Made by a program: the position numbers and the translations under genes. From the NCBI GenBank assembly GCA_016192995.1, contig JACPTB010000001.1, forward strand, positions 65,110-129,109: a stretch of 64,000 nt of DNA, in the 5' to 3' direction. The notes beneath the pieces were generated by a model. That model saw only the letters and a list, made by a program, of their open reading frames with translations. It was not told the origin of the DNA and did no database searches. This DNA comes from Candidatus Woesearchaeota archaeon (GTDB taxonomy: Archaea; Nanobdellota; Nanobdellia; Woesearchaeales; DSVV01). Positions 4,943-56,069 of the stretch are shown here, piece after piece; positions within the stretch are counted from its first letter, which is position 1; each line of letters begins with the position of its first letter.

Positions 4943-5093
4943 AGTGATATTGCGAAAAGTGCCACCATCTTTTTTGCGAGGCTCTTCTTATCTTTCATCG
5001 AGTGTTATCCGAGGTTCCAGAGAGGATAGCACAATCGATAACTGCATCTTAAGCCGAGCCGATGGTTGCCGAAAGCATTTTCGCAATATCACT
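4943..5093. mobile_element. MITE-like element, family 5 (TIR AGTGATATTGCGAAAA(G)TGC)
   Basis: About 17-bp terminal inverted repeats at 4943 and 5077-5093. Lies between the rluA-like stop (TGA 5089-5091, inside the right TIR) and the tpiA promoter. No clear TSD. Confidence 0.55.
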
Positions 5094-5841
5094 CGTTTTT
5101 TGGATTGTGCCGAATGAAACCGATTATGTTTTTACCTTTTTCATCGAGAAATCCTAAGAAATCTTCAGGTAACGGCGCAGTAAATGCATATTTTTCATTC
5201 CCAAAAGTAAATGAGACTTTAAAACTATGAAGCAGCATCCGCGGTGATTTAATTCTGGTTAAATGTTCTGGCAGTAACTGATGTTCATGGGTTGTATAAT
5301 ACTTAAACACGCGGTCAGCAATGTAAATCTTATCTCCAACAATAGGATGTTTAATTGAAGCAAGATGCACCCTAATCTGATGTTGTCTTCCAGTTAAGGG
5401 TTTACAGAGAACAAGTGTATATTTTTTCCCCTCTTTAATGAACGTATGCAAAGGTGTTATTCCAGTAATACTTTCTTTTCCTTGAGGACTTATCTTAACC
5501 TTCCACTTAATATGGGTGCCTCGTTTTTCAGCAAGCGGTTGATTAATAGTTATCGGTTTAGTAAGTACGCCAAATACAATGGCAAGATATTCCTTGTTAA
5601 AACCTCGTTCAGACATTTTATGGTAGAGTACTTTTGCTGTTTGCGTTAATTTTGCACATACTATTATTCCAGAAGTATCAAAATCAAGCCTATTAATAAG
5701 ATGAATTTGTTGATAATGTCCTTGTTGTTTAAGAACATCGAGCAAAGAATTATCCTCATATACACCTCCTGGATGGCTTGCTATTTGTGGAGGTTTATTA
5801 ACAATAAGAAGATGTTCATCTTCGTAGATAATGGGTATCAT
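5089..5841 (-). CDS. pseudouridine synthase, RluA family
   Basis: HRLDFDTSGIIVCAK (HRLD..TSG catalytic motif) and overall RluA/TruC-like architecture. Confidence 0.8.
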   Translation of the reverse strand: MIPIIYEDEHLLIVNKPPQIASHPGGVYEDNSLLDVLKQQGHYQQIHLINRLDFDTSGIIVCAKLTQTAKVLYHKMSERGFNKEYLAIVFGVLTKPITINQPLAEKRGTHIKWKVKISPQGKESITGITPLHTFIKEGKKYTLVLCKPLTGRQHQIRVHLASIKHPIVGDKIYIADRVFKYYTTHEHQLLPEHLTRIKSPRMLLHSFKVSFTFGNEKYAFTAPLPEDFLGFLDEKGKNIIGFIRHNPKNE

Positions 5842-5887
5842 ATGATGGAAGAATAAGCATACGATTAAAAAAGGTTATGAGAAAAAA

Positions 5888-6053
5888 GGCTTCATCCAAA
5901 AATAAGGTTAGCACCCTCAGGTCGAAACTCTTTGAAATATTCATGAAAAGAGGTCGGAGGGTAGGCTCCTTCGGAGCACGACCGTTTAAGCGAAGATAAT
6001 AAGCGAAGTTTCGAAGGTGCTAACCTGGCGGCAGCCATTTTTTGGATGAAGCC
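5888..6053. mobile_element. MITE, family 4 (TIR GGCTTCATCCAAAAA...TTTTTGGATGAAGCC)
   Basis: Perfect terminal inverted repeats. 9-bp direct duplication GAGAAAAAA at 5879-5887 and 6054-6062. Confidence 0.8.
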
Positions 6054-6105
6054 GAGAAAAAATACAAAACATTATATATCTCTATTTTCTCAACACTATG
6101 TTATG

Positions 6106-6456
6106 GAATTAAAACAAGTTATCTTAGTACGTGAGGATCTTAAATTACCTAAAGGCAAATTAGCTGCGCAAGTTGCTCATGCTGCAGTAGATGCGGCATT
6201 GAAATTGCAGAAAAAAGATGAATCCTTATTAAAGAGATGGTATAATTCAGGGATGAAAAAGATTGTTCTTAAAGTAACAGATGAAAAAGAGTTGTATAAA
6301 TATATTCAAATAGCTAAAGATCAAGGTATCATTACTTCTATTATTACAGACGCAGGGCATACGGTTGTTAAACCAGGTACTGTTACTTGTGGAGCCATTG
6401 GGCCAGCTGAGGAAGAGCAAATAGATGCGATTACGAGTAAATTGAAGATGATGTAG
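6106..6456 (+). CDS. pth2: peptidyl-tRNA hydrolase, archaeal PTH2 type
   Basis: MELKQVILVREDLKLPKGKLAAQVAHAAV ... GHTVVKPGTVTCGAIGP. The ORF-track start at 6046 lies inside the MITE TIR and is probably spurious. Confidence 0.8.
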   Translation, partial: ELKQVILVREDLKLPKGKLAAQVAHAAVDAALKLQKKDESLLKRWYNSGMKKIVLKVTDEKELYKYIQIAKDQGIITSIITDAGHTVVKPGTVTCGAIGPAEEEQIDAITSKLKMM

Positions 6457-6589
6457 TTTAGTCACCATTGCGTAATACTAACGAAAGTTTAAATAGTAGT
6501 ACTTCCAAAAATAAAATTTGTGGGGTATGGGGAATAAGTATCACACAAAGACTTTAGTTTAGAAAACATATTCCTTAAGGGAAAGAGGG

Positions 6590-7267
6590 GTGATTTTTTT
6601 GACACTAGAACAATTAGGTGCTTCAATAGCACAGCCATTACAAGAGGTATTAAGTAATTTCTTACAATTTGTGCCTGGATTGATAGGGGCATTTGTAGTT
6701 TTAGTTGTAGGATATCTTGTAGGATGGGTAGTTTATTTTGTTTTGAATCGATTTTTTACCGCAGTGAAGCTTGATGAGATGCTCATTAAGAAAACAAATC
6801 TTTCAAAACGCGTTGGTGACTTAAAATTTGGTCATATTCTTGCAGTTGTTTCGAAATGGTATGTATTTATCCTTTTCTTGACACCAGCAGCAAGTCTTAT
6901 TAATCTTGAGACAATGTCTGAATTTTTAATTATGGTATCATTTTGGATTCCAAATTTAATCGCAGGTGTATTAATTGCGTTGATTGGTTTAGTAGCAGGT
7001 GATTACACCTATTCAAGAATTGTGGAAACAAGAGCAAAAGATGCTGAACTTGTTGCAAAAATTGCACAATGGGTAATCATAATATTTGTCTTCCTCATTG
7101 CGCTTGAGCAAGTTGGTTTAAGCATTTCAGTTGCAAGAAACACCTTCCTTGTTGTGCTCGCAGGATTAATGTTAGGTGTTGGTATTGCAGTTGGTATCTC
7201 ATTCGGAGATGCAATGAAAGAACCAGCAGGAACCTTTATGCGCAAGCACTTTAAAGGAAGAAGATAA
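6590..7267 (+). CDS. integral membrane protein, unknown function (possible GTG start)
   Basis: Several long hydrophobic helices. No catalytic motif recognised. Confidence 0.4.
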   Translation: MIFLTLEQLGASIAQPLQEVLSNFLQFVPGLIGAFVVLVVGYLVGWVVYFVLNRFFTAVKLDEMLIKKTNLSKRVGDLKFGHILAVVSKWYVFILFLTPAASLINLETMSEFLIMVSFWIPNLIAGVLIALIGLVAGDYTYSRIVETRAKDAELVAKIAQWVIIIFVFLIALEQVGLSISVARNTFLVVLAGLMLGVGIAVGISFGDAMKEPAGTFMRKHFKGRR

Positions 7268-7315
7268 ACGAAATTATTTTTTCTTTTTGATTTTTTCAAT
7301 TTTGTTCTCCAAAAC

Positions 7316-7323
7316 ATTTATAA
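7316..7323 (+). promoter_or_regulatory. TATA-like box (TTTATAAA) upstream of rps3ae
   Basis: 26-33 nt upstream of ATG 7349. Confidence 0.4.
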
Positions 7324-7348
7324 ATCATCAGTAAATTCATGAAGTAAT

Positions 7349-8035
7349 ATGGCTAAAGCAACTAAAACACAAACACGTGTAGCAAATTGGAAGAAGAAGA
7401 AGTTAATTCCTATTTATACCGATAACACTTTTAATAATTTCTTGCTTGGAGAAACTATGGTTGAAACTCCTCAGGCATTAGTGGGAAGATGCATTTCTAC
7501 AAATTTGATGTTATTAACTGGTGATATGAAGAAACAAAACGTTAACCTTAAATTCAAAGTTACGCGCGCTGAAAACAACAGAGCAATTGCTGAGCCTCTT
7601 GGTTATTATACTTCTTTTGCTTCAATAAAGCGTATGGTAAGGCGCGGCCGTGATAGAATAGATCTTTCATTCGTGGGTAAAACTGCAGATCATAAATCTG
7701 TTCGTATAAAACCAATACTGATTACAAAATCATCAACAACAAGGGCAGTATTAACCTCATTACGGAAAAACTGCTTAGTATTAGTCACTAATTTTCTTAA
7801 AGAAACAAAATATGCTGATACGTTTGTTCATGTTATGAGCAATCGCCTTCAAAAATATTTAAATGATAGCCTTAAACGAATTTACCCTCTGCGAACTGTT
7901 GAAATTCGTGTTCTTGAGTTAGAAAAAGTAAAAGGCGCAGCAAAAGTTTCTGAAGCAATTAAAGAAATTCAGCCAGAACAGCCTTTAGAAGAAGCTGCAG
8001 AAGTAACGCAGCCAGAAGAAGCAGTTTCAGAATAG
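7349..8035 (+). CDS. rps3ae: 30S ribosomal protein S3Ae (eS1)
   Basis: Conserved W..K.W..I.AP / VGR..E..L.DLTGD pattern (ALVGRCISTNLMLLTGDMKK) and acidic C-terminal tail. Confidence 0.85.
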   Translation: MAKATKTQTRVANWKKKKLIPIYTDNTFNNFLLGETMVETPQALVGRCISTNLMLLTGDMKKQNVNLKFKVTRAENNRAIAEPLGYYTSFASIKRMVRRGRDRIDLSFVGKTADHKSVRIKPILITKSSTTRAVLTSLRKNCLVLVTNFLKETKYADTFVHVMSNRLQKYLNDSLKRIYPLRTVEIRVLELEKVKGAAKVSEAIKEIQPEQPLEEAAEVTQPEEAVSE

Positions 8036-8053
8036 ATCAAGGCAACAATAAGG

Positions 8054-8061: not shown

Positions 8062-8083
8062 TCTCATTACTATTTTTAGAAAT

Positions 8084-8674
8084 ATGAAACTCATCATGCA
8101 TGGTGCGGAAGCTAAGATTTATAGAGATAAAAATAAAATAATTAAGATCAGAGCTGAGAAAAAATACCGTTGCAGGGAATTAGATGAATCATTGCGTAAA
8201 CATCGCACAAGAAAAGAAGTGAAAATATTAGAAAAGATCGCAAAACTGAAGCTTGCTCCGAAATGTATATCATATAACGATGTTGATACTGTTGAAATGG
8301 AATTTGTTGAAGGAAAAAAACTCTCAGAACATCTTGAAAGACTCAAGTATAAACAGGTTTGTTTTATCCTTGGTCAAAAAATACGGCAGCTTCATGATCT
8401 TGAAATTATACATGGTGATTTAACAACAAGCAATTTAATATATGATGATCAAGAACATAAACTTTATTGCATTGATTTTGGTCTAAGCTATACTTCTACA
8501 AAGGACGAAGATAAAGCAGTTGATTTGCATGTATTGCATGAAGCACTGGTCAGTAAGCATTATAGCATTGCTGATAGGGCATTTAAAGAAGTCTTACAAG
8601 GGTATGATTCTAAAAAGGTTGAAAAAAAGTTAGTGTTAGTAGAATTACGAGGACGAAATAAACAGAAATCATAG
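8084..8674 (+). CDS. bud32: KEOPS complex kinase Bud32 (Kae1-associated kinase)
   Basis: About 196 aa atypical kinase. IIHGDLTTSNLIY catalytic loop and DFGLS motif. No Kae1 adjacent. Confidence 0.75.
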   Translation: MKLIMHGAEAKIYRDKNKIIKIRAEKKYRCRELDESLRKHRTRKEVKILEKIAKLKLAPKCISYNDVDTVEMEFVEGKKLSEHLERLKYKQVCFILGQKIRQLHDLEIIHGDLTTSNLIYDDQEHKLYCIDFGLSYTSTKDEDKAVDLHVLHEALVSKHYSIADRAFKEVLQGYDSKKVEKKLVLVELRGRNKQKS

Positions 8675-8829
8675 GTATGTAATAAGTCTTCTTCGGTTGT
8701 AGCGCCGGTTCAGCTTTTGAAGTGTATATCAATTGGATTTTTCTCTCTGGCACTCCGAAAAATCCTCGATAGTTACTAAGAAGAGCTTCACAAAATAGGC
8801 GCTAAAACCCCAGACTTATTACGTACGAT
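8675..8829. mobile_element. MITE, family 1 (TIR GTA(C/T)GTAATAAGTC...GGCGCTAAAACCCCAGACTTATTACGTAC)
   Basis: Terminal inverted repeats. Internal conserved core GGATTTTTCTCTCTGGCACTCCGAAAAATCC at 8724-8754. 7-bp TSD ATCATAG (8668-8674, which includes the bud32 TAG stop, and 8831-8837). Confidence 0.75.
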
Positions 8830-8838
8830 CATAGCGGC

Positions 8839-9011
8839 TTCGGTGAAAATGTAGTTTTTGGTGCCATGCTGGTGATTATCTTTCAAATTAATGAACGAGA
8901 AAAAAGGAAATTCCAATAGGAATTTTTTCCTTCTTATAAATAAGCGGGATAATCACGGCACCAAAACCGAGGCTATGCCGAGATTTTCACCGAAGCCGAT
9001 CATAGCATTAA
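8839..9011. mobile_element. MITE, family 3 (TIR GGCTTCGGTGAAAAT...ATTTTCACCGAAGCC)
   Basis: 9-bp TSD GATCATAGC at 8830-8838 and 9012-9020. It inserted into the right TSD copy of the adjacent family-1 element. Internal palindrome TTTTTGGTGCCATGCTGGTGATTATC / GATAATCACGGCACCAAAACC. Confidence 0.8.
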
Positions 9012-10586: not shown

Positions 10587-10629
10587 GTACGTGGAAAGCT
10601 TAGAGCACTCCTCTAAGCTTTCCACGTAC
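10587..10629. repeat. 19-bp inverted repeat hairpin (GTACGTGGAAAGCTTAGAG-CACTC-CTCTAAGCTTTCCACGTAC)
   Basis: Perfect palindrome 4 nt after the stop of the Zn-ribbon gene. Starts with the GTACGT hexamer also found at family-1 MITE tips. Confidence 0.6.
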
Positions 10630-10673: not shown

Positions 10674-11967
10674 ATGAATCCATTGCAAACAATTTCTCCA
10701 TTAGGCGGAAGATATTATGATAAAACTGAATTGTTAGTTCCTTTCTTTAGCGAACAGGCATTCTTTAAGTATAGAATTCTTGTTGAAACTGCCTACTTAG
10801 TAGCTCTATCTGAAGTAGAAGGATTTTGCTTGAGAAAATTTACTGATGAAGAAAAAGATTTTTTGAACAATCTTTCGAAACTTTCGCTGGAAGATACTGA
10901 AATTATTAAAGAGATTGAAACAAAAGGATATCAAGACATCCCTCCAACAAATCACGATGTTAAAGCAATTGAATATTTTATTAAACTGAGATTAGAAGCA
11001 ACGTCACTTCATGACTGCAAAGCATTTGTTCATTTTGAAAGTAGATCAGCTTATTCTGCTCATTAATTCTTTCGCAAAAAATTACCAGGATGTTCCTATG
11101 CTTGCAAGAACCCATGGACAACCTGCATCCCCAACAACAGTCGGCAAAGAGTTTCTTGTATTTAATAGCCGGCTTAAAAGGCAATTAGAATACTTAAAAT
11201 CCCATAAAATAACAGGAAAATTAAATGGCGCTACTGGCAATTATAATGCGCAGGTTGCTGCATTTCCATCTATTGATTGGATTAAATTTTCAGAGCAGTT
11301 TATTTCTTCATTAGGAATTGAACCAAATCTAATTACAACACAAGTTGAGCCGAAAGATAGTTATGCTGAAGTATTTGATTGTTTACGAAGGATAAATGTT
11401 ATTCTCCTTGATTTTTCACAAGATATGTGGCGTTATATCAGTGACAACTGGTTTATTCAAAAACCAGTAGCTGGAGAGATTGGGAGTTCAACGATGCCGC
11501 ATAAAATAAATCCTATTGATTTTGAAAATGCAGAAGGCAATCTAGGATTAGCAAATGCATTGTTTGATTTTTTTTCTCGAAAATTACCCATTTCAAGATT
11601 GCAGCGCGACTTGTCAGATTCCACTGTTTTGAGGAATATAGGGGTTGCTTTTGGCCACTGCTTAGTTGCTTATGAAGCACTGTTTAAAGGGGTATCAAAA
11701 ATCGAAGTGAATAAAGAAGAATTAGTAAAAGCGTTGCAAGATCATCCTGAAATAATTACTGAGGGAATACAAACGATATTACGAAGAGAAGGCTTAACTA
11801 CAGCTTACGAACAATTAAAGGAGTTAACAAGAGGGAAAAAAGTGACTTTACAAGAAATTTATTCTTTTGTTGAACAATTAGATTGTTCATTGCGGGTAAA
11901 AGAAGATCTAAAGAAAATAAATCCAGCAAATTATGTTGGGATAAGCTTCCGGCTCTGTCCCGAATGA
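10674..11967 (+). pseudogene. purB: adenylosuccinate lyase (purB), disrupted: two overlapping frames, 10674-11066 and 11011-11967
   Basis: N-terminal part (SPLGGRYY..) is in frame 0. The remainder (MLARTHGQPASPTTVGKEF ... SSTMPHKINPIDFENAEGNLG) is in frame +1. The expected HFG.TS.D..DTA segment between them appears missing or shifted. The last five codons and the stop (11965-11967) come from the MITE at 11951-12113. Confidence 0.6.
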
Positions 11968-12113
11968 AGTTTTTGGTGCCATGCTGGTGATTATCCTTCC
12001 AATTAGTACGTGGGAAAAAAGGAAGTTCCAGTAGGAATTTTTTCCTTCTTATCAATAAGTGGGATAATCACGGCACCAAAACCGAGGCGTTAGCCGAGAT
12101 TCGGGACAGAGCC
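11951..12113. mobile_element. MITE, family 3 (TIR GGCTCTGTCCCGAAT...ATTCGGGACAGAGCC)
   Basis: Terminal inverted repeats. Flanking 9-mers TAAGCTTCC / TAAACTTCC (TSD with one mismatch). Same internal GGTGCCATGCTGGTGATTATC module as 8839-9011. Confidence 0.75.
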
Positions 12114-14115: not shown

Positions 14116-14323
14116 GGCTCTGGTGAAAATCTCGGCATAGCCTCGGTTTTATTAAAAATCACTATTTTTAATCCCTGAGATCCTTCGGATTCAGGTGACA
14201 TCAGTTCGGCTTTTTATTGGTTCATGTTATTGGATTTTTCTCTCTGGCACTCCGAAAAATCCTCACTTATGAAATTAAAGAGCCTCACCAAAAGATGCCA
14301 AAAACTACATTTTCACCAGAGCC
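14116..14323. mobile_element. MITE, family 2 (TIR GGCTCTGGTGAAAAT...ATTTTCACCAGAGCC)
   Basis: 9-bp TSD CGTCTCAAC at 14107-14115 and 14324-14332. Inserted 2 nt after the radical-SAM gene stop. Contains the shared core at 14232-14262. Confidence 0.85.
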
Positions 14324-14375: not shown

Positions 14376-14428
14376 TCCTTAAAATAAAAGAATAAATGAT
14401 TGAAATGATTGAAAAGCCTCTGGCGGGA
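14376..14428. repeat. direct duplicate of the tRNA-Thr 3' end plus flank (AAGAATAAATGATTGAAAAGCCTCTGGCGGGAATTGAA)
   Basis: About 45 bp repeated at 14376-14428 and 14510-14557. The second copy is the genuine 3' end of tRNA-Thr. Confidence 0.7.
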
Positions 14429-14533
14429 ATTGAAGCCGCGCAGCCTTTTAAAAAAAGCCTGGGGAAAACAAAGCAAGTACGACATTTACTTTGTAAAGTC
14501 GTACGAATGAAGAACAAGAATAAATGATTGAAA

Positions 14534-14605
14534 AGCCTCTGGCGGGAATTGAACCCGCGACCTCTACCTTACCAAGGTAACGCTCTACCACTGAGCCACA
14601 GAGGC
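14534..14605 (-). tRNA. tRNA-Thr (anticodon GGT)
   Basis: Reverse complement GCCTCTGTGGCTCAGTGGTAGAGCGTTACCTTGGTAAGGTAGAGGTCGCGGGTTCAATTCCCGCCAGAGGCT folds into a canonical cloverleaf with anticodon loop TTGGTAA. Confidence 0.85.
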
Positions 14606-15950: not shown

Positions 15951-16112
15951 GGCTCTGGTGAAAATATAGTTTTTGGCATCTTCTCGTGAGGCTCTTCAAA
16001 GTAATGTGTGGGAATTTTTCGGAGTGCCAGAGAGAAAAATCCAATAAAATAAATCCATTAAAAGCCGAACTGATGCCAAAACCGAGGCTATGCCGAGATT
16101 TTCATCAGAGCC
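15951..16112. mobile_element. MITE, family 2
   Basis: TIR GGCTCTGGTGAAAAT / ATTTTCATCAGAGCC. 9-bp TSD GTTCATTAT at 15942-15950 and 16113-16121. It supplies the last two codons and the TGA stop of the ORF at 16105-16614. Confidence 0.85.
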
Positions 16113-16614
16113 GTTCATTATAGGTTGGGACAAGAAGTAAAGTATCACGTAATATTCTTATAGGATCAACTAAACTTCCCGGGGAAAATTCTGAAGCAAA
16201 AGAAGGATTTTGATCTACCACAGTAAATCTATTATTATTCATTGGTAATATAACCTGCTGCAGAAAATCACCATGTTTATAATCATAAGATATTGATAAT
16301 TGAGGTACTTTATTAGATACTACTATTTGCACTAATTTTCTGTATTCCATATTTTCTGGTCCAAAAGCAACAAAGCAAGTGTAACTGCCATCATCATTTA
16401 GCTGAATTTTTCTTGAATTGCAAGCAGCGGTCTTTTTAATATAATGATACAATCGTTGGGCATAAAAATTAATTTGCTCCTCTCTTGACATAAATTCATA
16501 GGGAGACGGATCAGGGTCAATGATAAAATCAATGCAGCCTGGCTGAAACAATAATCCGAAACCTAAAGCAGCTTGTACCGTCAATTTTCTTATAATGGAG
16601 GTTAATTCCATCAC
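16105..16614 (-). CDS. hypothetical protein
   Basis: 169-aa ORF with no recognisable motif. The C-terminus ends inside the MITE. Confidence 0.4.
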   Translation of the reverse strand: MMELTSIIRKLTVQAALGFGLLFQPGCIDFIIDPDPSPYEFMSREEQINFYAQRLYHYIKKTAACNSRKIQLNDDGSYTCFVAFGPENMEYRKLVQIVVSNKVPQLSISYDYKHGDFLQQVILPMNNNRFTVVDQNPSFASEFSPGSLVDPIRILRDTLLLVPTYNERL

Positions 16615-16840: not shown

Positions 16841-16954
16841 TAGTAGTTTTTATAGATTTTAGTAGTTAATAGGTTATTTATATAGTTTACTACTACAAAG
16901 TACTCTATATATTAAGCGAAATATTTATATACACGTACGTGTACACGTACGTGT

Positions 16955-17206
16955 ATGGCAACAAAAACATTGACTATAACGGAAGATGCGTATAATCTTT
17001 TGAAGACACAAAAGTTAGCAGATGAAAGTTTCTCTGAAGAGATAAGTAGATTATTGTCTGAAAAGAAAAAAGGCTCTATTTGGAATTATTATGGGATATT
17101 ATCAGAAGAGGATGGACAAGCTATAATGGACCATTATTTGGAACGAAAAAAGGGAAATATTATTGAAGCAAAAAAGAGGTTGCAACGTATACATGGCATT
17201 ACTTGA
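16955..17206 (+). CDS. vapB: type II antitoxin VapB-like
   Basis: Small ORF overlapping the downstream PIN gene by 14 nt. Typical antitoxin size and arrangement. Confidence 0.6.
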   Translation: MATKTLTITEDAYNLLKTQKLADESFSEEISRLLSEKKKGSIWNYYGILSEEDGQAIMDHYLERKKGNIIEAKKRLQRIHGIT

Positions 17207-18344: not shown

Positions 18345-18588
18345 GTACGTAATAAGTCTTCTTTAGGTTTTAGCACCAGTTCAGCTTGAAATGTGATTAA
18401 ACATTGGATTTTTCTCTCTATAAATATAATCCCGACTCCCTCAATAATATAAATCAAGGATTCATAAGTTGGCTTGCGTCTGGGATTATAAGACTTGCCT
18501 ATCGGCAAGGAACCCCGAAAAATCCCCAATAAATATATAAGAAAAGCTTCACAAAAATAGGTGCTAAAACCCCAGACTTATTACGTAC
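18345..18588. mobile_element. composite MITE: family 1 carrying a nested about 93-bp palindromic element
   Basis: Family-1 TIRs at both ends. 8-bp TSD AAAAAACA at 18337-18344 and 18589-18596. Internal insert (TTGCCGATAGGCAA ... ATAATCCC(G/A)GAC ends) is identical to the insert in 34720-34961. Confidence 0.8.
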
Positions 18589-24350: not shown

Positions 24351-24397
24351 ATAAAAATAACGTTTTTGAAGTCATTTATAAATGTTTTCTTAAGTGT

Positions 24398-24465
24398 GCT
24401 GTGTTGCATAATTATTCCATACCTTTGGTTAAACCCAAAGGTATGGAATAATTATGCAACACAGC
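24398..24465. repeat. perfect 31-bp inverted repeat separated by 6 nt (GCTGTGTTGCATAATTATTCCATACCTTTGG-TTAAAC-CCAAAGG...)
   Basis: Arms 24398-24428 and 24435-24465 are exact reverse complements. Sits in a divergent intergenic region. Confidence 0.7.
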
Positions 24466-24510
24466 AAAGGATAAACAATCTTTTTAAATAATTATGTTAT
24501 TCTTTATTGA

Positions 24511-25200: not shown

Positions 25201-25537
25201 GGGCTTCATCCAAAAAATGGCTGCGCCAGGTTAGCGCCTTCGAAACTTTGCATATTTCAATCGCATAAACAGTCACGCTCCGAAGAAGCCGTCCCTCTGA
25301 TCTCTTTAAACAGCTCTGTCCCGAATCTCGGCTAACGCCTCGGTTTTGGTGCGGTGATTATCCCACTTATTGATAAGAAGGAAAAAATTCCCATTGTAAT
25401 CTCCTTTTTTCTAGATTATTTATTTTAAAGATAATCACCAGCATGGCACCAAAAACTTTATTCGGGACAGAGCCCTTTAAACCGGTACTGTAAAGAGTTT
25501 CGACCTGAGGGCGCTAACCTCATTTTTGGATGAAGCC
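25201..25537. mobile_element. composite MITE: family 4 element carrying a nested family 3 element
   Basis: Family-4 TIRs GGCTTCATCCAAAAA / TTTTTGGATGAAGCC. 9-bp TSD TATGTATGG at 25192-25200 and 25538-25546. The right end abuts the antiporter stop codon. Confidence 0.85.
25312..25473. mobile_element. MITE, family 3, nested inside the family 4 element
   Basis: TIR (A)GCTCTGTCCCGAAT / ATTCGGGACAGAGCC. 8-bp TSD CTTTAAAC at 25304-25311 and 25474-25481. Confidence 0.8.
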
Positions 25538-26869: not shown

Positions 26870-28123
26870 TTACCCCTTTAGTAACCACTTCCAGACGGGA
26901 ATTGCTATTATTGTTTTATCTCCAATTATAAATTTATCTTCTTGATTATAAGTTAAAATTAATCCTTCTTTCAGCTTAAATTTCTTCATGGCGCTAACTA
27001 AGCCAGTTATTTCCCTCTCCCTACTATTTTCATTAAGTTCATAGCAAACCTGCATGGCTTTGACAATTTTTAGACCTTCTCTAATTAAAAAATCACATCC
27101 ATTTTCTTCTTGAAAGTAGAATATCTCTTTATTTTTCCTTCTTAAATTGATAAAAACAAGGTTTTCAAGCAGCCGACCCCGGTCATCAAAGAAAGAAGCA
27201 GAATTTTTGGCTGCAAAACCATTATCTATTGCATAAATTTTCTTAGGATTAACCAGCATTTTTTTCAGAGAATAATCGAATCGCTGAATAGTGAACAGCA
27301 GGTAGGTGTTTTCAAAATAAGAGATAAAAGCTATGACTGTATTAATCGAACCTAATTTAAAATTCTTTTTAAGAGAGTTATACGTAAAGGGCTTCCCAAT
27401 ATTTGTCAAGAGATAAGTAGCCAGGTCTTTCAATATTTTTTGGTTTCTTAGTTGATACCTAGTTATAATATCTCTAGCAAGTATATCCTTCAGTAATTCT
27501 TGAAGAACATCCGGTCTTTTTAGTTTTAAATATTCTGCAAAACCACCCTCAGAGAAATATTCTTCAAATGAAACTAAGGAGGGTTTCTCTTTTTTAAGCC
27601 TTAGAAATTCTCTAAATGAGAACGGAAATAATTCATGATTTAAGTGTCTCCCTGTTAGTTTTGTTCCGAGTTCCTGACTTAAAAGAGACGCATTAGAACC
27701 CGTAATTATCACGTGTTTCTTCAGGTCAACCAGTCTTCTTACAAAAATCTCCCATTTAGCAATATTCTGAATTTCGTCAAAAAAATAATAATTCTGTTCT
27801 TTATACTCTTCGTGAAAGACTTGGTCTAATTTTTCAAAATCACCTATATCAAACTCTCCGGCTCGTGAGTCCTCAAAATTAAAATAGTAGAATCCTTTCA
27901 GATTTTTCATCAATTGCAGAAGCAAGGTGCTTTTTCCACATCTTCGTATTCCTGATAAAATCAAAGCAAAAGGCACATTTAAATCGATAGTTGATATATC
28001 TTCCCTCTCTATGCCTAGATCAAATAAGGCCATTTCTTCTCTTTGCAATCTTACCAGTCTTCTAAGTGTTTCTTTATCTATCATGTAACTTTCTAATACA
28101 TTTAGATTTATAAATGTTTGCAT
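26870..28123 (-). CDS. AAA ATPase of the COG1373/DUF4143 family
   Basis: Walker A ILSGIRRCGKSTLL and Walker B FFDEIQ. C-terminal DUF4143-like region. Paralog at 50229-51491. Confidence 0.7.
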   Translation of the reverse strand: MQTFINLNVLESYMIDKETLRRLVRLQREEMALFDLGIEREDISTIDLNVPFALILSGIRRCGKSTLLLQLMKNLKGFYYFNFEDSRAGEFDIGDFEKLDQVFHEEYKEQNYYFFDEIQNIAKWEIFVRRLVDLKKHVIITGSNASLLSQELGTKLTGRHLNHELFPFSFREFLRLKKEKPSLVSFEEYFSEGGFAEYLKLKRPDVLQELLKDILARDIITRYQLRNQKILKDLATYLLTNIGKPFTYNSLKKNFKLGSINTVIAFISYFENTYLLFTIQRFDYSLKKMLVNPKKIYAIDNGFAAKNSASFFDDRGRLLENLVFINLRRKNKEIFYFQEENGCDFLIREGLKIVKAMQVCYELNENSREREITGLVSAMKKFKLKEGLILTYNQEDKFIIGDKTIIAIPVWKWLLKG

Positions 28124-33064: not shown

Positions 33065-33222
33065 TGTACGTAATAAGTCTGGGGTTTTAGCGCCTGCTTT
33101 TGTGAAGCTCTTCTTAACTTTACTTTGGGGATTTTTCGGAGTTCCAGAGAGAAAAATCCAATTGAAGAACACTTCAAAAGCTGAACCGGCGCTAAAACCT
33201 AAGGAGGACTTATTACGTACTA
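33065..33222. mobile_element. MITE, family 1
   Basis: 29-bp TIRs GTACGTAATAAGTCTGGGGTTTTAGCGCC / GGCGCTAAAACCTAAGGAGGACTTATTACGTAC. 8-bp TSD TATCAAGT at 33057-33064 and 33223-33230. Sits 43 bp upstream of the rpl10e start. Confidence 0.85.
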
Positions 33223-34565: not shown

Positions 34566-34719
34566 AGTACTATGTTTCCTCCATTTCTATTCCAGATAGT
34601 ATCCTTCTAAAATATCTTAACATCCCCAGAAAATTGAGGTATTTACCTCTTATTAATAATGAAAAAACCAATGTTTTATAAAGTTATCTATTTCAGTATA
34701 GTTCCACCATAATACAAGG

Positions 34720-34961
34720 TACGTAATAAGTCTGGGGTTTTAGCGCCTACTTTTGTGAAGCTCCTCGATATCTTTATTTGGAATTTTTCGGGGTTCCTTG
34801 CCGATAGGCAAGTCTTATAATCCCAGACGCAAGCCAACTTATGAATCCTTGATTTATATTATTGAGAGAGTCGGGATTATATTTATAGAGAGAAAAATCC
34901 AATCGAAATAATATGTTTAAGCTGAACCGGCGCTAAAACCTAAAGAAGACTTATTACGTAC
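34720..34961. mobile_element. composite MITE: family 1 with nested about 93-bp element (same subfamily as 18345-18588)
   Basis: Family-1 TIRs. Insert TTGCCGATAGGCAAGTCTTATAATCCCAGAC...GTCGGGATTATATTTATAG sits between TTCC and AGAGAG of the core. No clean TSD seen. Confidence 0.75.
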
Positions 34962-38555: not shown

Positions 38556-38626
38556 GTACGTAATAAGTCTGGGGTTTTAGCGCCTACTTTTCTGAAGCTT
38601 TTCTATCTTTACGTTGAGGATTTTTC
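38556..38626. mobile_element. truncated family 1 MITE (left half only)
   Basis: GTACGTAATAAGTCTGGGGTTTTAGCGCCTACTTTTCTGAAGC...GGATTTTTCGGAGTTCCAG then the homology ends. Confidence 0.7.
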
Positions 38627-38794
38627 GGAGTTCCAGAAGGTGAAGGAAAGCATTTAGAACAATACAGAAACTCACGAGAGCTTGATGTTGAGGTTGCTGT
38701 TGACAGCTTTGGAAATAGTGTGATAACTCAGTTGTACCTACAAGATAAGCCCTGGATAAAACCTTGAATAGTATTTTTCTTCACTACTGATTAT

Positions 38795-49664: not shown

Positions 49665-49761
49665 CGGGCCAGACGAGATTTGAACTCGCGACCACCCGAT
49701 TTCTTAGGAAGCTGAGCATCCTTAAAAGTCGGGTGCTCTATCCAGGCTGAGCCACTGGCCC
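49665..49761 (-). tRNA. tRNA-Lys (anticodon TTT) with about 22-nt canonical-position intron
   Basis: RC GGGCCAGTGGCTCAGCCTGGATAGAGCACCCGACTTTTA[intron]ATCGGGTGGTCGCGAGTTCAAATCTCGTCTGGCCCG. Acceptor, D, anticodon and T stems all pair. Confidence 0.7.
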
Positions 49762-50004: not shown

Positions 50005-50052
50005 GGTTATTTATAAAACTTTTGCTTATCCGTTGACTCAACAATGGATAAG
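50005..50052. repeat. 17-bp perfect inverted repeat hairpin (AAAACTTTTGCTTATCC-N14-GGATAAGCAAAAGTTTT)
   Basis: Exact reverse-complement arms between divergent tRNA-Asp and tRNA-Tyr. Confidence 0.7.
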
Positions 50053-50090
50053 CAAAAGTTTTAAATAAAGTGGCAAAACCTAAAACATAT

Positions 50091-50218
50091 CCTCCTATAG
50101 CTCAACGGCAGAGCGTTCGGCTGTAGATAACTCACTGCAATGACATTGGATTATCCATAAGAATGAGTTGCAGCCAGCTGAACCCGAAAGGTTCCCGGTT
50201 CAAATCCGGGTGGGGGGA
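50091..50218 (+). tRNA. tRNA-Tyr (anticodon GTA) with about 56-nt intron
   Basis: CCTCCTATAGCTCAACGGCAGAGCGTTCGGCTGTAG[intron]..CCGAAAGGTTCCCGGTTCAAATCCGGGTGGGGGGA. C1-G72 pair, anticodon loop CTGTAGA. Confidence 0.65.
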
Positions 50219-50228: not shown

Positions 50229-51491
50229 TTACTCTACCATCCATTTATAAATAGGCAACACTTGTATCTTTTTGCTTTTCATCCGTATATCTTCTGTTTG
50301 TTCATGGGTCAGCATTATTCCTGTTTTCAACTTGAATTTGTCCATTGCTTCAATTAAACCTGCTATTTCTCTTTCCTTATTATCTTTATTCAGGACGTAG
50401 CATACCTGTATGGCTTGTGTTATTTTTGTCCCTTTTTTTGTTATAAAATCACATTCGTTTTCATTAGTATAATAAAATACCTCATTGTTTCTTCTTTTTA
50501 ATTCAATAAATACCATATTTTCCAGTATTTTTCCCTTGTTTTCTGAAAAGTTTGTCCCACATATTTGATTGAATGCAGAATCCACGAGATATATTTTTCT
50601 TGGGGAGTTAAGCTGTTGTTTCAGTGAATAGGAGAATTTCAGCAGTTCAAAAAACAAATAAGAGTTACTTAAGTAAGAAATATATTCTTTGACGGTTATC
50701 GCATTTCCTAAACCAAGAGTTTTCTTTAATGAGTTGTAGGTGAATTGTGAGGAAATGTTTGTACCAAGTAGGTTTATCAGTTCTTTAATTATCTTCTGCT
50801 TTCTTATAGAATATCTTGTTATAACATCCTTGTATAATATATTCTCATAAACTGTTTTAATATATTCTTTATCCTTGTTTTTTAGGTATTCCGGCAAACC
50901 CCCTAATGATACATACTCTTCAAAGAGCTTTATCAATTCAACTTTCTTCTCAACGATGTAAAAATCATTTTTCTCTAAGGTTATATTCCTAAATTTAAGA
51001 AATTCTTTGAAAGAAAATGGATAGACTTCAAACGGTTTGTATCTCCCGGTCAATCTCGTACCAAATTCCTTGCTAAGTAAAGAAGCATTAGAACCTGTAA
51101 TTATGACTTTCTTTCCCTCATCCTGCAATCTTCTAACAAACGTCTCAAACTTATCTATATTCTGTATTTCATCAAAAAAATAAATATTTATCTTGCCATA
51201 TTCTTCAATAAGAACCTCATTAAGCACTTCAAAATCCTGAGCCATAAAATCCAAGAATCTTTCATCCTCAAAGTTAACATAACACCAATCAGACACATTT
51301 TGCATAACTTCCTTAAGCAGCGTAGATTTGCCGCATCTTCTAACACCGGTAAGAATAATCACCCTATCATCCTTAATCCACTTTAAAATTTCGTCCAGCA
51401 GATCTCTCACAACAAAACGTTGTTTAGTTAAAATCTCCTGTTTTTGCCTCATTACTACTTTCCTTAAGATATCCTTGTCAAACATACTCAT
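50229..51491 (-). CDS. AAA ATPase, COG1373/DUF4143 family (paralog of 26870-28123)
   Basis: ILTGVRRCGKSTLL Walker A, FFDEIQ Walker B. Collinear with the other copy. Confidence 0.7.
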   Translation of the reverse strand: MSMFDKDILRKVVMRQKQEILTKQRFVVRDLLDEILKWIKDDRVIILTGVRRCGKSTLLKEVMQNVSDWCYVNFEDERFLDFMAQDFEVLNEVLIEEYGKINIYFFDEIQNIDKFETFVRRLQDEGKKVIITGSNASLLSKEFGTRLTGRYKPFEVYPFSFKEFLKFRNITLEKNDFYIVEKKVELIKLFEEYVSLGGLPEYLKNKDKEYIKTVYENILYKDVITRYSIRKQKIIKELINLLGTNISSQFTYNSLKKTLGLGNAITVKEYISYLSNSYLFFELLKFSYSLKQQLNSPRKIYLVDSAFNQICGTNFSENKGKILENMVFIELKRRNNEVFYYTNENECDFITKKGTKITQAIQVCYVLNKDNKEREIAGLIEAMDKFKLKTGIMLTHEQTEDIRMKSKKIQVLPIYKWMVE

Positions 51492-51594: not shown

Positions 51595-53055
51595 CTATTC
51601 ATTTGCTGCAAGCGCCGTGTTAGAATTGACTTTAACTATATGGCCAGAAGCTGTTTTAAATTTAGCGCTTGCATAAGGTAGTCTCATATTGCCAATGATT
51701 TTTAAACGTGATTTTATTTTATACGTTAAAATACGCTCTTCATAGCCTTCAAGAGCAGCTATGCTCCATCTGATAACAGTACCTTTCTTCTCATGTTTTA
51801 AGATTTTATCCGGCGCTAGAGTGCCATGGCTGAATTCTTTTTCAACTTGCGCTATATGAGTTACTCGATCCATAATAAATACTTCTTCTACAGGCTTATT
51901 TGTTCTATTTTTTACATGAATCAACACTTTAATGTGAGACATATTGCTATTTGCATCGTCTTTGTTTAAAACAACAGCTTCTTTAGATATGATTACAGGA
52001 CTCCTAAACACAAAATAAGCTATAACCCCAAGAATCAGAAGGATAATTGCAGTAAATAGATATCTGAAATTAGTGCTTATAACAATTATTTGCTTTTCTT
52101 GAGGGGGAATATCAAGAGTCCACGTAAAATAACGCTCACCTTCTTCGGTAATCACTTCTCCTTTAGGCATCGCTGATGTAAACAGCTGGTTAAACAAGGT
52201 AGTTTTGAACGTGATCTTTTCGTTATTGACTACATTACCATCATTAGTAAATGTTTTAGTAATTACTTCTTTAAGAAACTGCTTATTAACATCCTCTTCT
52301 GTTTTGAGATCAGAATAAGCCTTAACTTTAATCACTTTTTTAGTCGAAAATGATCCTTCTTCAGCAGCTACCGTAACCATTAACAGGTCATTTTGAGGAG
52401 GTGTTAATGGATCATAAATAACGGTAAAACTCTCAGTTTTTCGCTCGAGAGGCGCCAGCGAAATCATTTTATCTCCATTAAACAGTTTGCTTTCAACCAT
52501 TACTTTTAATTCAGGAATATTAAGCTTGTTTTTGTTGAGAAGGTTTATTTTTAATTCAAATGGCTGGCGAGGATCTACTTGCTCAGGAAAATCAACATCA
52601 AGATTTATTGAAGGGATATATCCTCCAACAGTATTAGATGGATCTTTAACAATTAATATACTGCTTACTTGCTGGCTATTGCCGCCTTTTTTTGAAGTTA
52701 TATCTAAATTGAACTCATGAGGGCCATAATTAACAATTTCTGAAGGAATAACATATATTTTAAAGCTGACTGTTTGTCCTGGTTGAAGATTAATCCCAGA
52801 AAGATATGAAAGCTTTTCAGTTTCAATACTCCATTTATTGCCGTTGTAAAAATTTAATATGAAACTATCAGGTTCTTCATTAAGGTTGGTAATGCTGAGC
52901 TGATAAACAGCTTTTTCTCCTGGCAAAGCTGCGTAAGTAATTTTAGTAAACTTAACCTGAAAATCAGAAAGAGCTGTTACAAAACTAAAGGTTAACAAGA
53001 GCATTGTTAAAAAAATAAGTGATACACGACCTGCTCGACCCCTTTTTTGCACCAA
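51595..53055 (-). CDS. cell-surface protein with signal peptide and C-proximal TM anchor, unknown function
   Basis: N-terminal hydrophobic signal LIFLTMLLLTFSFVTALS. Beta-rich extracellular part. TM helix AIILLILGVIAYFVF. Confidence 0.4.
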   Translation of the reverse strand: MVQKRGRAGRVSLIFLTMLLLTFSFVTALSDFQVKFTKITYAALPGEKAVYQLSITNLNEEPDSFILNFYNGNKWSIETEKLSYLSGINLQPGQTVSFKIYVIPSEIVNYGPHEFNLDITSKKGGNSQQVSSILIVKDPSNTVGGYIPSINLDVDFPEQVDPRQPFELKINLLNKNKLNIPELKVMVESKLFNGDKMISLAPLERKTESFTVIYDPLTPPQNDLLMVTVAAEEGSFSTKKVIKVKAYSDLKTEEDVNKQFLKEVITKTFTNDGNVVNNEKITFKTTLFNQLFTSAMPKGEVITEEGERYFTWTLDIPPQEKQIIVISTNFRYLFTAIILLILGVIAYFVFRSPVIISKEAVVLNKDDANSNMSHIKVLIHVKNRTNKPVEEVFIMDRVTHIAQVEKEFSHGTLAPDKILKHEKKGTVIRWSIAALEGYEERILTYKIKSRLKIIGNMRLPYASAKFKTASGHIVKVNSNTALAANE

Positions 53056-53135
53056 GATTAAAACCCCTGTATATTACCTTATTAATTCCCTATTTATATC
53101 TAAATAGCTTTATAAAACTTTCTATCTCGAGTTCA

Positions 53136-55616
53136 TTATTTCTGGAAAGATACTCTGCTTATATGACCTGTTTTCTCGATTTTAATCACCGTATCAACAA
53201 AACTCTCTATTTTAGCTTCATGACTGACCATAATTACCTGTTTAATAAGAAGCTCGCCTAATACGTCTTTAAGCTGATCTAATTGTTCATGGCTAAAACC
53301 CTCAGTAGGCTCATCAAGAATAAGAATATCCTTCGTTGCAATAGAATTCATAAATTCATTAATTACTTTGTTTAACGCAAGCCTGTATGCTAGACAAACA
53401 GCAGTTCGTTCACCACCTGAAACACTAGTAATATCAAGTTCATAGCCATTTTGCTCAATAACTGGGGTAAATTCCTCATCTAAACGCACACTGATCATTT
53501 CATCACCCATCAAGAGCTTAAACCAATCGATGAAGATACGATTGAATTCATGATATACCTGAAGCATAACCTGCTTTTCAATAACAAAGGTGATATTAAC
53601 AAAAAATTTGTTCAACCAGTTGGTGTACTGATTAATCGCAGTAATTTTCTTTTGAAAAACTAATTTCTCATCAAGTTCCTGCTTTCGTTTTTCCAGCAGT
53701 TCAATACTATACTGTTTTTCGGTTTCTAACTTTGTTTTTTCTATAGAAAGCTTCTTCTCTTGAAGATTTAATTGCTCAAGTTCCTGCTCAAACTGTTTAT
53801 ATCTTATTTCGCTTTCCTTTGTTTCTTGCAGTTTACTGCTTGCAACCATTATCTTATCTTTTGTAACAAGCAATTCATTGCTTGCTAGCCCGTTGTTTTT
53901 AGAAAGCATTTGTTCTTCTGTTTCAAGCTCTGAAAGCCGACTAATTTTTACCTGGCGCTGCTGATTGATTTCGTGATATTTTTGCCATTGCTCAAGAAAC
54001 AATTTATACTGGTTCCGCTTTTGCACATATTCTTCTGGTTTATATTCTTTCAGCAACTCTTGTTCTTTGATAATATGACTTCTAATCTCTTCTGCTTTTT
54101 CTAGAAGTTTTTCTTTATCTTTAATCTCATGATCCACTCGTTCCAGTGAAGCAAGTTCAACCTGGAGCTTTTCCTGCTCCAGCTCCCGACGCTGGGCTTG
54201 TTCGAGCGCTTGACGGCTAGCATAGACTTGCTGTTCACTAGCTTTCTTTTCAGCATTCAACACCATTAAATGCTTTTTAGCCTCATGGCATTCTCTCTCT
54301 TTAAGCATATATACTTCTGCTTTGTGTTCTTCATTAACTTCCTGGAGACAAGTAGGGCATTTATTTAGCTCAGCTAGCTTTTCCTTTACTTTTACTGCTC
54401 GATCAATAGTAATTTCATGCTCAGTGACATAACCAGCAACAACAGAAATATTTTTTTCAAGGTTAAGTATTTCTTGCTTCAAAAAATTTATATCTTTTTT
54501 GCTGCTCTTCAATTTTTCCCATGTTGTTTTTTTTAATTCAAAACAATTAAGAACTATTTTTTTTTGCTCTATTTCCTGACGGAGCTGCGTAATTGTTTTT
54601 GTATTGAACAATAATTCTTCCTGGTTTCTCAGCTGCCGTTCTTTATATTCCTGATATTCTTCATCAAGTTTTTGCAATGAGCGCTCTATTTCATCGCGCG
54701 GCATGTCAGTTGGTTTTTCAATAACAAGGGATTGCAGTTCTTTTTTTAATGCTTCTTTGTGCAGACTGTTTTTTTCAGCCTGCACTGCTATTTTTTCTTT
54801 TAATTCATGAAGATTCCTTAACCTTGTTTCTTCAACTGCCAAGGCTTGTTTAGCATTATAGTATTCCTGCACCTGCTGCTGCTGCTGTTGAAGCTGAACT
54901 CTTTTTTCATGCTGCTGATCTTTTATGAAGCTCATCTGCGGCAACAATTCTTGAAGATTAGCTTCCAGCTCTTTTATCTTCAGCTTATATTCTTTTATTT
55001 GAGCTTCTTTTTCAGGGATATCGTGTACAAGCCCTTCAAAATAAGCGCGCTGTAATTTCAACTGTTTGACAATAATTATTGCATTTTCTCTGATTTTTTT
55101 ATATTTTTCAACATTGAATACTCTCCTCAATGTTTCAAGCCTTGTTTCTTTACTTTCCAGCAAAATACGCTTCATTGCTTCCTGCGGCGTATACACGGTG
55201 TAACGATAAATCAGGTCTTTGGTCTTGGTAAGGAGATCATCAGAATAGCCAAGCAGCTCCAATATTTTTGCTTTTAATTCTATAGCAGTGCAGTCTGTTT
55301 TAACATCATCAATAATAATAAAACCACTTTCTTGTTTGACACTATTGGATCTCCGCAGATTACGATGGATAATAACTGATTTTTTGCTGATTTCACTGGC
55401 TAATTCCACGCAACCTTCATGCTTGCCATTCCGAAGAAGAGCATCGCCTTCAAGACTCCCTCGAATAAAACCAAATAACGCAAATTCTATGGCATGGAGA
55501 ATAGTTGATTTTCCAGCGCCAATATCGCCTGAAAGCAATATAGTGCCTTCTGGAAAAACAATTGTTTCATCAGTATACGAACGAATATTGTGCAGTTTGA
55601 TTGATTTAAAAATCAT
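53136..55616 (-). CDS. rad50: DNA double-strand break repair ATPase Rad50
   Basis: Walker A GDIGAGKST, long coiled coil, CPTC zinc hook, signature LSGGERTAVCLAYRLAL, Walker B ILILDEPT. Confidence 0.8.
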   Translation of the reverse strand: MIFKSIKLHNIRSYTDETIVFPEGTILLSGDIGAGKSTILHAIEFALFGFIRGSLEGDALLRNGKHEGCVELASEISKKSVIIHRNLRRSNSVKQESGFIIIDDVKTDCTAIELKAKILELLGYSDDLLTKTKDLIYRYTVYTPQEAMKRILLESKETRLETLRRVFNVEKYKKIRENAIIIVKQLKLQRAYFEGLVHDIPEKEAQIKEYKLKIKELEANLQELLPQMSFIKDQQHEKRVQLQQQQQQVQEYYNAKQALAVEETRLRNLHELKEKIAVQAEKNSLHKEALKKELQSLVIEKPTDMPRDEIERSLQKLDEEYQEYKERQLRNQEELLFNTKTITQLRQEIEQKKIVLNCFELKKTTWEKLKSSKKDINFLKQEILNLEKNISVVAGYVTEHEITIDRAVKVKEKLAELNKCPTCLQEVNEEHKAEVYMLKERECHEAKKHLMVLNAEKKASEQQVYASRQALEQAQRRELEQEKLQVELASLERVDHEIKDKEKLLEKAEEIRSHIIKEQELLKEYKPEEYVQKRNQYKLFLEQWQKYHEINQQRQVKISRLSELETEEQMLSKNNGLASNELLVTKDKIMVASSKLQETKESEIRYKQFEQELEQLNLQEKKLSIEKTKLETEKQYSIELLEKRKQELDEKLVFQKKITAINQYTNWLNKFFVNITFVIEKQVMLQVYHEFNRIFIDWFKLLMGDEMISVRLDEEFTPVIEQNGYELDITSVSGGERTAVCLAYRLALNKVINEFMNSIATKDILILDEPTEGFSHEQLDQLKDVLGELLIKQVIMVSHEAKIESFVDTVIKIEKTGHISRVSFQK

Positions 55617-55660
55617 ATAATCGTGAGCATGGTTGTATTTTTATAGATTTATATCATCTA

Positions 55661-55826
55661 GGCTTCATCCAAAAATGAGGTTAGCGCCCTCAGGTCGAAA
55701 CTCTTTACAGTACCGGTTTAAAGAGGTCAGAGGGGCGGCTCCTTCGGAGCGTGACCGTTTATGCGATTGAAATATACGAAGTTTCGAAGGCGCTAACCTG
55801 GCGGCAGCCATTTTTTGGATGAAGCC
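55661..55826. mobile_element. MITE, family 4
   Basis: TIR GGCTTCATCCAAAAA / TTTTTGGATGAAGCC. 9-bp TSD TATCATCTA at 55652-55660 and 55827-55835. 45 bp upstream of the rad50 start. Confidence 0.85.
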
Positions 55827-55862
55827 TATCATCTAATAACATATACATGAAACATAATCAAA

Positions 55863-56069
55863 GGCTCTAATGAAAATCTCGGCATAGCCTCGGTTTTATT
55901 AAAAATCACTATTTTTAATCCCTGAGATCCTTCGGATTCAGGTGACATCAGTTCGGCTTGTTAAGAGTATATCTTATTGGATTTTTCTCTCTGGAACTCC
56001 GAAAAATCCCCACACTTAAACGTGAAGAGCCTCACAAAAAGATGCCAAAACTACATTTTCATTAGAGCC
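55863..56069. mobile_element. MITE, family 2
   Basis: TIR GGCTCTAATGAAAAT / ATTTTCATTAGAGCC. Nearly identical internally to 14116-14323. No TSD found. Confidence 0.75.

Follow-up and report, generated by a model that had tools for sequence, protein, structure and literature searches.

Short inverted-repeat elements with target-site duplications and a common hairpin core in a Woesearchaeota genome

The stretch analyzed here (the window) is 64 kb of DNA from Candidatus Woesearchaeota archaeon, a member of the DPANN archaea, and element coordinates are whole-window positions. Direct reading of the sequence identified 15 short elements of 82–336 bp and one 14-nt solo end. The elements are present in multiple copies, carry terminal inverted repeats (TIRs) of 15–16 nt that are perfect in most copies, and are flanked by target-site duplications (TSDs). 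They have no coding capacity and all are smaller than about 500 bp, the size of MITEs (miniature inverted-repeat transposable elements). The elements are very probably genuine MITEs whose insertion relied on a transposase provided in trans. An earlier sequence-only reading of this DNA had proposed at least 16 MITE copies in a small archaeal genome. The MITEs and the small-genome host, a woesearchaeon, were borne out and the count was not, because the set consists of 15 elements plus the solo end at 57110. Most of the positions in that reading hold; family 5 spans 4925–5111 and does not begin at 4943, and the F3 copy placed at 8839 starts at 8836. The elements of families F1 to F5 are as follows.

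4925..5111, plus strand: F5 element, 187 bp; TIR GGCACAATCC.../...GGATTGTGCC; flanks GGATGAAA/GAATGAAA (7/8)
5888..6053, plus strand: F4 element, 166 bp; TIR GGCTTCATCCAAAAA 15/15; TSD GAGAAAAAA (9 bp)
8675..8826, minus strand: F1 short form, 152 bp; TIR GTACGTAATAAGTCT; flanks AATCATAG/GATCATAG (7/8)
8836..8998, plus strand: F3 element, 163 bp; TIR GGCTTCGGTGAAAAT; TSD GATCATAGC (9 bp)
11951..12113, plus strand: F3 element, 163 bp; TIR GGCTCTGTCCCGAAT 15/15; TSD TAAGCTTCC/TAAACTTCC (8/9)
14116..14323, minus strand: F2 long form, 208 bp; TIR GGCTCTGGTGAAAAT 15/15; TSD CGTCTCAAC (9 bp)
15951..16112, plus strand: F2 short form, 162 bp; TSD GTTCATTAT (9 bp)
18345..18588, minus strand: F1 long form, 244 bp; TIR 15/15; TSD AAAAAACA (8 bp)
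25202..25537, minus strand: F4 element with a nested F3, 336 bp; TIR 15/15; TSD TATGTATGG (9 bp)
25312..25474, minus strand: F3 element nested in the preceding F4 copy; TSD CTTTAAAC
33066..33220, plus strand: F1 short form, 155 bp; TSD TATCAAGT (8 bp)
34719..34961, plus strand: F1 long form, 243 bp; flanks AATACAAG/CATACCAG (6/8)
38556..38640, plus strand: truncated F1 that keeps just its left half; the break falls within the central hairpin loop
55661..55826, plus strand: F4 element, 166 bp; TIR 15/15 (17/17 with flank); TSD TATCATCTA (9 bp)
55863..56069, minus strand: F2 long form, 207 bp; TIR GGCTCTAATGAAAAT; no TSD; 90% identical to the copy at 14116
57110..57123, plus strand: solo F1 terminal fragment, 14 nt, GTACGTAATAAGTA; last base unlike the F1 TIR

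The duplications carry the evidence for insertion. Nine TSDs are exact by direct reading (GAGAAAAAA, GATCATAGC, CGTCTCAAC, GTTCATTAT, AAAAAACA, TATGTATGG, CTTTAAAC, TATCAAGT, and TATCATCTA), so that 9 of the 13 scorable window copies have perfect duplications, and these are the nine that had been quoted earlier. Imperfect duplications flank a further four copies: 8675 (7/8), 11951 (8/9), 34719 (6/8), and 4925 (7/8). A 9/9 match between flanks has a chance of about 4e-6 per element, and the earlier use of the TSDs as evidence of transposition stands with nine exact and four near-exact cases. The duplication length is fixed in each family, with 9 bp for the GGCT-ended F2, F3, and F4 and 8 bp for F1; the F5 flanks fit 8 bp (7/8). 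The duplicated sequences differ from copy to copy and are mutually unrelated. Nesting supplies a filled and an empty version of one site. The F3 copy at 25312 interrupts an F4 copy and has CTTTAAAC on either side; in the sibling F4 at 55661, CTTTAAAC occurs just once at the equivalent position. This lone CTTTAAAC is the empty site of the nested F3, making this an internal filled/empty pair. Repetitive extragenic palindromic or IS200-IS605-type palindromic elements are ruled out as an identity, since the elements do have TSDs.

Stable predicted folds and covariation, both described below, would also suit structured noncoding RNA genes or cis-regulatory RNAs that are not transposons at all. The TSDs contradict this explanation, as the elements sit between exact 8- or 9-bp duplications of unrelated flanks, and the nested copy has its empty site. 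Copies occupy other loci in every genome with no conserved position, are randomly oriented, and have palindromic symmetry on both strands. Rfam has no matching family for any element, whether the gathering score is applied or the limit is relaxed to E ≤ 1. It is therefore highly improbable that the elements are RNA genes, and the sequence-only reading was right to call them true transposition products rather than CRISPR or an RNA family.

The element set is reproducible by other means. Inverted-repeat, direct-repeat, and self-BLAST scans of the window returned the same set, and profile hidden Markov model (HMM) scans for each family found no further window copies. The F1 29-mer GTACGTAATAAGTCTGGGGTTTTAGCGCC has five matches in the window compared to 0.00 expected from shuffles, GGCTCTGGTGAAAAT with up to two mismatches has eight matches that form four inverted pairs (0.10 expected), and GGCTTCATCCAAAAA has six matches that form three inverted pairs (0.30 expected). 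All terminal motifs quoted in the earlier reading are at the places given there and far above chance in shuffles. The MITEs total 2,638 bp, equal to 4.1% of the window's length and to 30% of the noncoding DNA in it; the former estimate of about 3 kb, roughly 5 percent, was slightly high, and the high load it described is real. The local density of 15 elements in 64 kb corresponds to about 230 per Mb. Window copies within a family are only 76–90% identical (86% for the F4 pair). At 4 of the 13 insertion loci one element adjoins or lies inside another, as where 9 nt separate the F3 inserted at 8836 from the F1 copy at 8675..8826. The far-end TIR of this F1 copy is mutated to GTATGT.... The solo F1 end at 57110 is weak and is possibly a remnant. 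Independent Logan short-read assemblies of the same organism have contigs that end 27–85 nt inside F5, F3, and the F2 copies at 14116 and 55863 because dispersed repeats break de Bruijn assemblies; contig L003 stops 27 nt inside the F2 at 14116 and L008 stops 85 nt inside the F2 at 55863. Look-ups with exact proteins yielded no empty-site alleles: for three there was no matching record, and the contigs recovered by the others end within MITEs. No further copies were found in the approximately 14–16 kb that other assemblies add beyond the two sides of the window.

The families are related to one another. F1, F2, and F5 align across a core of approximately 110 nt and differ in their terminal ~16 nt, so the core is borne by elements with two unrelated TIR types. 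The F5 element has 34-nt arms that are 82% complementary, a core in common with F1 and F2, and a match to the CORE HMM at E=1e-28. Its target, when restored, gives TTTTTGGATGAAACC, a 14/15 match to an F4 end. F2 and F3 have both ends in common and different interiors, and these ends, along with a shared hairpin loop, place F3 in the group. F1, F2, F3, F5, and the metagenome relatives all have a central hairpin whose loop retains AGTTCCAG (or TTGCAAG) as its core. The hairpin stems vary between families yet stay complementary (GGATTTTTC/GAAAAATCC, GCATTTTTC/GAAAAATGC, GTGTTATCC/GGATAGCAC, GAAAAAA/TTTTTTC, GCAAAAA/TTTTTGC, AAGCAAA/TTTGCTT, and GCGAAAA/TTTTCGC). Extra small hairpin modules are present in the long forms of F1 and F2, and in the F1 at 18345..18588 a module of about 100 nt is inserted within the central loop. 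Judging from these alignments, all families belong to one superfamily in which F1 is the core with swapped termini and an 8-bp instead of a 9-bp duplication. The five or more related families of the sequence-only reading are thus related as described, and not independent, given the one shared core.

The proposed mechanism starts with a transposase supplied in trans that would bind the 15–16-nt TIRs together with a conserved subterminal motif (GGTTAGCNNC / GGTTTTAGCGCC / GTTTTTGGYRYC). Staggered target cuts would then be made 9 bp apart for the GGCT-ended F2–F4 and 8 bp apart for the GTACGT-ended F1 and apparently F5. We infer a DDE mechanism of insertion.

The F4 family is found well beyond this organism. 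Its end pattern matched 67 loci in a collection of species-representative genomes, 65 of them in Woesearchaeota/Nanoarchaeota from at least 11 other bins. The other two matches, in bacterial bins, were set aside as chance, roughly one being expected by estimate. The F4 loci differ in every genome and each has its own 9-bp duplication. Complete F4 copies number 40 (3 in the window and 37 elsewhere), have a modal length of 165–166 bp, and are all intergenic. A perfect 9-bp TSD flanks 21 of the 40 and another 11 match at 7–8 of 9 positions; the duplicated sequences are unrelated. The F4 termini and GGTTAGC are invariant across genomes, and the interiors fall to 65–69% identity between genomes. 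Within most genomes the copies are 84–98% identical, and bin JACOZO has subfamilies as low as 66%. This pattern indicates that F4 was amplified separately in the different lineages while the requirement for end recognition stayed conserved. Several JGI metagenomes contain F2/F3-like copies that have 9-bp duplications, for instance at loci L022 (CATCATTCA), L025 (8/9), and L013. The high-GC metagenome matches that the F2/F3 pattern gave come from a conserved coding gene and not from MITEs. The F1 ends had no exact match in genome, metagenome, or viral collections (the genome collection is without the source genome), and F1 is private to this lineage. The F4 ends, the F2/F3 ends, and the hairpin loop were not found in viral contigs, and BLAST with F4 and F2 found nothing in plasmid records. 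As judged from these matches, the superfamily appears to be specific to Woesearchaeota/Nanoarchaeota and to have been amplified separately in each lineage.

Some F4-bearing bins among loci L032–L098 are labeled 'uncultured Methanosarcinales archaeon' (CAYWNO01, CAZIEE01, CAZMBY01, CAZPXC01, CAYHTH01, and CAYJXA01). MITE sharing between a symbiont and a Methanosarcinales host was considered and rejected, as the S7 of CAYWNO01 is 83–84% identical to Woesearchaeota/Nanoarchaeota S7. The bin labels appear to be wrong, judging from CAYWNO01 as the one bin tested. Two solo F4 ends, at L042 2022–2058 and L079 4365–4401, are both cut directly after GGTTAGCAG(CCT), and the 37-nt remnant in L042 is flanked by the 12-nt direct repeat TTAGAAAAATTA.

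The window contains no transposase domain, consistent with the earlier reading, when about 60 open reading frames (ORFs) are compared to Pfam and 10 of the 11 Pfam-less ORFs to NCBIfam. A parent was also sought in all loci by scanning for GG-starting inverted ends 0.6–3.5 kb apart with 9-bp duplications. The only structure returned, L077 744–2504 (1761 bp), was rejected as a parent. It is an F4 MITE (TSD AAATTCTCC) split by an unrelated nested insertion sequence (IS), which has its own 19-nt ends TCCAATGTCATTAAGTTAA, encodes a 431-aa DDE_Tnp_1 transposase, and is inserted in the F4 central hairpin. A 308-aa protein that is 95–97% identical across three bins was rejected as a mobile gene candidate because it is transcription factor B (TFB), and unpaired ends in L058 and L079 proved to be truncated MITEs beside ordinary genes.

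The ends themselves point to a type of parent. GGC termini are present in F2–F5 (GGCTCT / GGCTTC / GGCACA) and not in F1. Like IS903 of the IS5 family, F2–F4 have ends that start GGCTT/GGCTC, TIRs of about 15–18 nt, an A-rich inner half, and a 9-bp duplication. ISL3 elements have GGCTCTT-type ends and an 8-bp target duplication, and an ISL3-type parent does not fit because the GGCT-ended copies duplicate 9 bp. IS903B has the inverted repeat GGCTTTGTTGAATAAATC, the direct repeat CTCAGATGC, and a 9-bp duplication (PMC10569121), and a position-by-position reading of its inverted repeat against the F4 TIR gives 12/18 matches. The elements differ from IS903 in the unrelated GTACGT ends of F1 and its duplications of 8 bp and in their DPANN host, and no IS903-like (DDE_Tnp_1) transposase with GGCT ends came to light. 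We infer an IS5/IS903-like parent for the GGCT families.

The sequence-only reading also supposed an active autonomous IS partner, but none was found, and with copies 76–90% identical the activity may be old. One explanation is that the elements are fossils, the cognate transposase having been lost from the lineage so that none is mobile now. The divergence of the window copies within a family fits such a loss, as does the lack of a transposase in the window or flanks, and the assemblies examined, which come from several samples, all have their breaks in these same elements and show no empty-site allele. On the other hand, 9 of 13 scorable copies keep perfect TSDs, the absence of F1 ends from three public collections suggests a recent origin of this lineage-private family, and only about 80 kb was covered of a genome in which this contig by itself measures 324 kb. 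Complete loss of mobility is a serious possibility that falls short of an even chance.

Some observations weigh against transposition in trans as the whole account of these MITEs. The F2 copy at 55863 has no TSD. A matching-ended autonomous element is absent from the window, its ~14–16 kb flanks, and 88 related loci (~0.5 Mb). The F4 consensus fold from 31 copies has 39 pairs. Both sides differ in 14 of these, and in helix 3 change is seen in 8/8 pairs, so that covariation extends well past the TIR. The central hairpin keeps its loop while the stems change. Folded as single-stranded DNA, the F4 at 55661 forms a long rod (z = -5.6) and the F1 at 33066 a rod-like hairpin (z = -7.4). Paired cells make up 94.8% of the F4 arms compared to 88.6% in shuffles, and registers that are slid pair at ≤51%. 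Double-changed cells number 65 compared to 17 in shuffles, and 0 of 500 shuffles reached 65. Such arm covariation is unexpected in a plain decaying relic and therefore implies some constraint on folding. The longer (right) F4 arm has an extra mini-hairpin with a covarying stem (TGGC/GCCA, CAAGC/GCTTG, TTCGC/GCGAA), as at window positions 55797–55810. It is present in most F4 copies of L032–L098 and often reads GCGAAGC, a sequence that forms a very stable DNA mini-hairpin.

These data raise the prospect that the MITEs also carry a selected structured module, which would add to their identity as MITEs and not replace it. The hairpin and arms could aid transposition through synapsis or single-strand fold-back, or they could benefit the host by acting as bidirectional A-tract/hairpin/T-tract terminators, for instance, or as a small RNA. 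The excess of pairing and of double changes in the F4 arms and the stability of the DNA folds are in line with selection, as are the loop core AGTTCCAG kept in F1, F2, F3, F5, and the metagenome relatives despite stem change and the presence of the same core with two unrelated TIR types. Against a selected module, orientation relative to the flanking genes shows no bias (7 same, 6 opposite), gene contexts (18 tandem, 9 divergent, 4 convergent) show no preference for gene 3′ ends, and no Rfam family matches. A tally from the per-pair table gives 16 G-U and 11 A-C mismatches in the F4 arm helices, about equal, so no strand is favored. Arm covariation can also come from a co-evolving transposase that binds both ends or from fold-back repair. 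A selected module is accordingly unlikely, and we give the same low probability to a long-lived, Woesearchaeota/Nanoarchaeota-restricted MITE superfamily in which selection acts on the folded core itself. The covariation symmetry is read as a property of the transposon and not of an RNA gene because the covariation is strand symmetric, the orientation is random, the gene contexts are mixed, and there is no Rfam match. For MITEs mobilized in trans, this symmetry could arise if one enzyme binds the ends, if fold-back aids synapsis, or if repair takes place within fold-back DNA.

The window is 86.7% coding, and comparison of approximately 60 ORFs to Pfam gives ordinary housekeeping genes of archaea, among them split RpoA and RpoB, ribosomal proteins, PTH2, TIM, and toxin-antitoxin pairs. 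Its RpoA′ has 100% identity to a protein assigned to Candidatus Woesearchaeota archaeon, and the next relatives are ≤76% identical. All window copies lie between genes or clip no more than final codons, and the MITE/ORF overlap is only 64 nt in total. The last seven codons of a pseudouridine synthase ORF (5089–5841, minus strand) are inside F5 (5089–5111), and the F1 at 8675 begins right behind the stop codon of a RIO-type kinase gene (8672–8675). The F3 at 11951 is the source of the final five codons and stop of adenylosuccinate lyase, altering its C terminus from ...GISFQ* to ...GISFRLCPE*. The stop codon of ORF 16105–16614 (minus strand) is within the right TIR of the F2 at 15951 (16105–16112), and the F4 at 25202..25537 abuts or supplies the end of a Na/H exchanger gene at 25537. 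MITEs that abut or supply gene ends show that free intergenic space is very scarce.

Other features of the window are recorded here. Adenylosuccinate lyase is in two overlapping frames, 10674–11066 and 11011–11967, reflecting a frameshift or a sequencing error. Small GTACG...GTACG palindromes with F1-like ends and without duplications are located at 10587–10629, 14478–14505, and 16938–16956; one, a possible operator, is directly upstream of a vapB antitoxin gene. Intergenic palindromes at 24374–24489 (55-nt arms) and 50014–50063 (22-nt arms) are not MITE copies, and their comparison to Rfam gave only miRNA-type models well below threshold. The tRNA-Thr gene (14534–14605, minus strand) has a 38-nt copy (97%) of its 3′ end and downstream flank 81 nt from the gene, the duplicate being at 14403–14440 and 14522–14559; the arrangement resembles what remains of an att site after an integrated element has been deleted. 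Two tRNA genes are over-long, at 49665–49761 (minus strand, 97 nt) and 50091–50218 (plus strand, 128 nt), and presumably contain introns. ARAGORN gave one of them the anticodon TTA ('stop'), a probable intron artefact. Paralogous AAA_14/DUF4143 ATPase genes at 26870–28123 and 50229–51491 have stretches of about 200 nt that are alike in DNA.

High MITE density in a Woesearchaeal genome is already known. A 2024 census of prokaryotic MITEs found the highest archaeal densities in the DPANN, with 146 and 105 per Mb in Ca. Altiarchaeum and 'a Woesearchaea genome', and about 89% of archaeal MITEs were intergenic (PMC11602168). The local density reported here (~230 per Mb in one 64-kb window) is about twice those genome-wide figures, and the census was a bulk survey that does not give these families, the shared core, the cross-species conservation, or the TSDs (PMC11602168). 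The searchable literature holds no account of these families, the shared core, the F1 end swap, or the conservation of F4 across Woesearchaeota. Sulfolobus SM1–SM4 and the haloarchaeal MITEs in ISfinder are nonautonomous TIR elements of 80–350 bp with parent ISs in the same genomes. They are alike in being archaeal TIR elements and unlike in that their parents are identified, whereas none was found here, in a DPANN lineage. Short, highly self-complementary repeats that are abundant in small genomes include the Rickettsia palindromic elements, Wolbachia MITEs, and Neisseria Correia elements; such palindromic MITE-like repeats of bacteria with reduced genomes or a host-associated life are tolerated at gene ends and sometimes add codons, and Correia elements duplicate TA. 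The woesearchaeal elements resemble them in size, self-complementarity, small host genomes, tolerance at gene ends, and contribution of codons, and differ in that the repeats are bacterial and have different termini and duplications.

MITEs make up about 30% of the intergenic DNA in a stretch that is 87% coding; therefore, reduced episymbiont genomes can bear a heavy load of selfish DNA, as in Rickettsia and Wolbachia. Short-read assemblies break at these repeats, which may add to the fragmentation of Woesearchaeota bins. The termini that are invariant across many Woesearchaeota bins can serve to mark the lineage and to track down the transposase, and the hairpin core, shared and compensating, offers a way to test whether MITE structure is selected. 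Should the core prove to be selected, the structure would be the persisting unit that gains new termini to use whatever transposase is available, and the mobilizing enzyme may not be a linked IS. A host role would then also be possible, such as a terminator or an RNA signal in a very compact genome.

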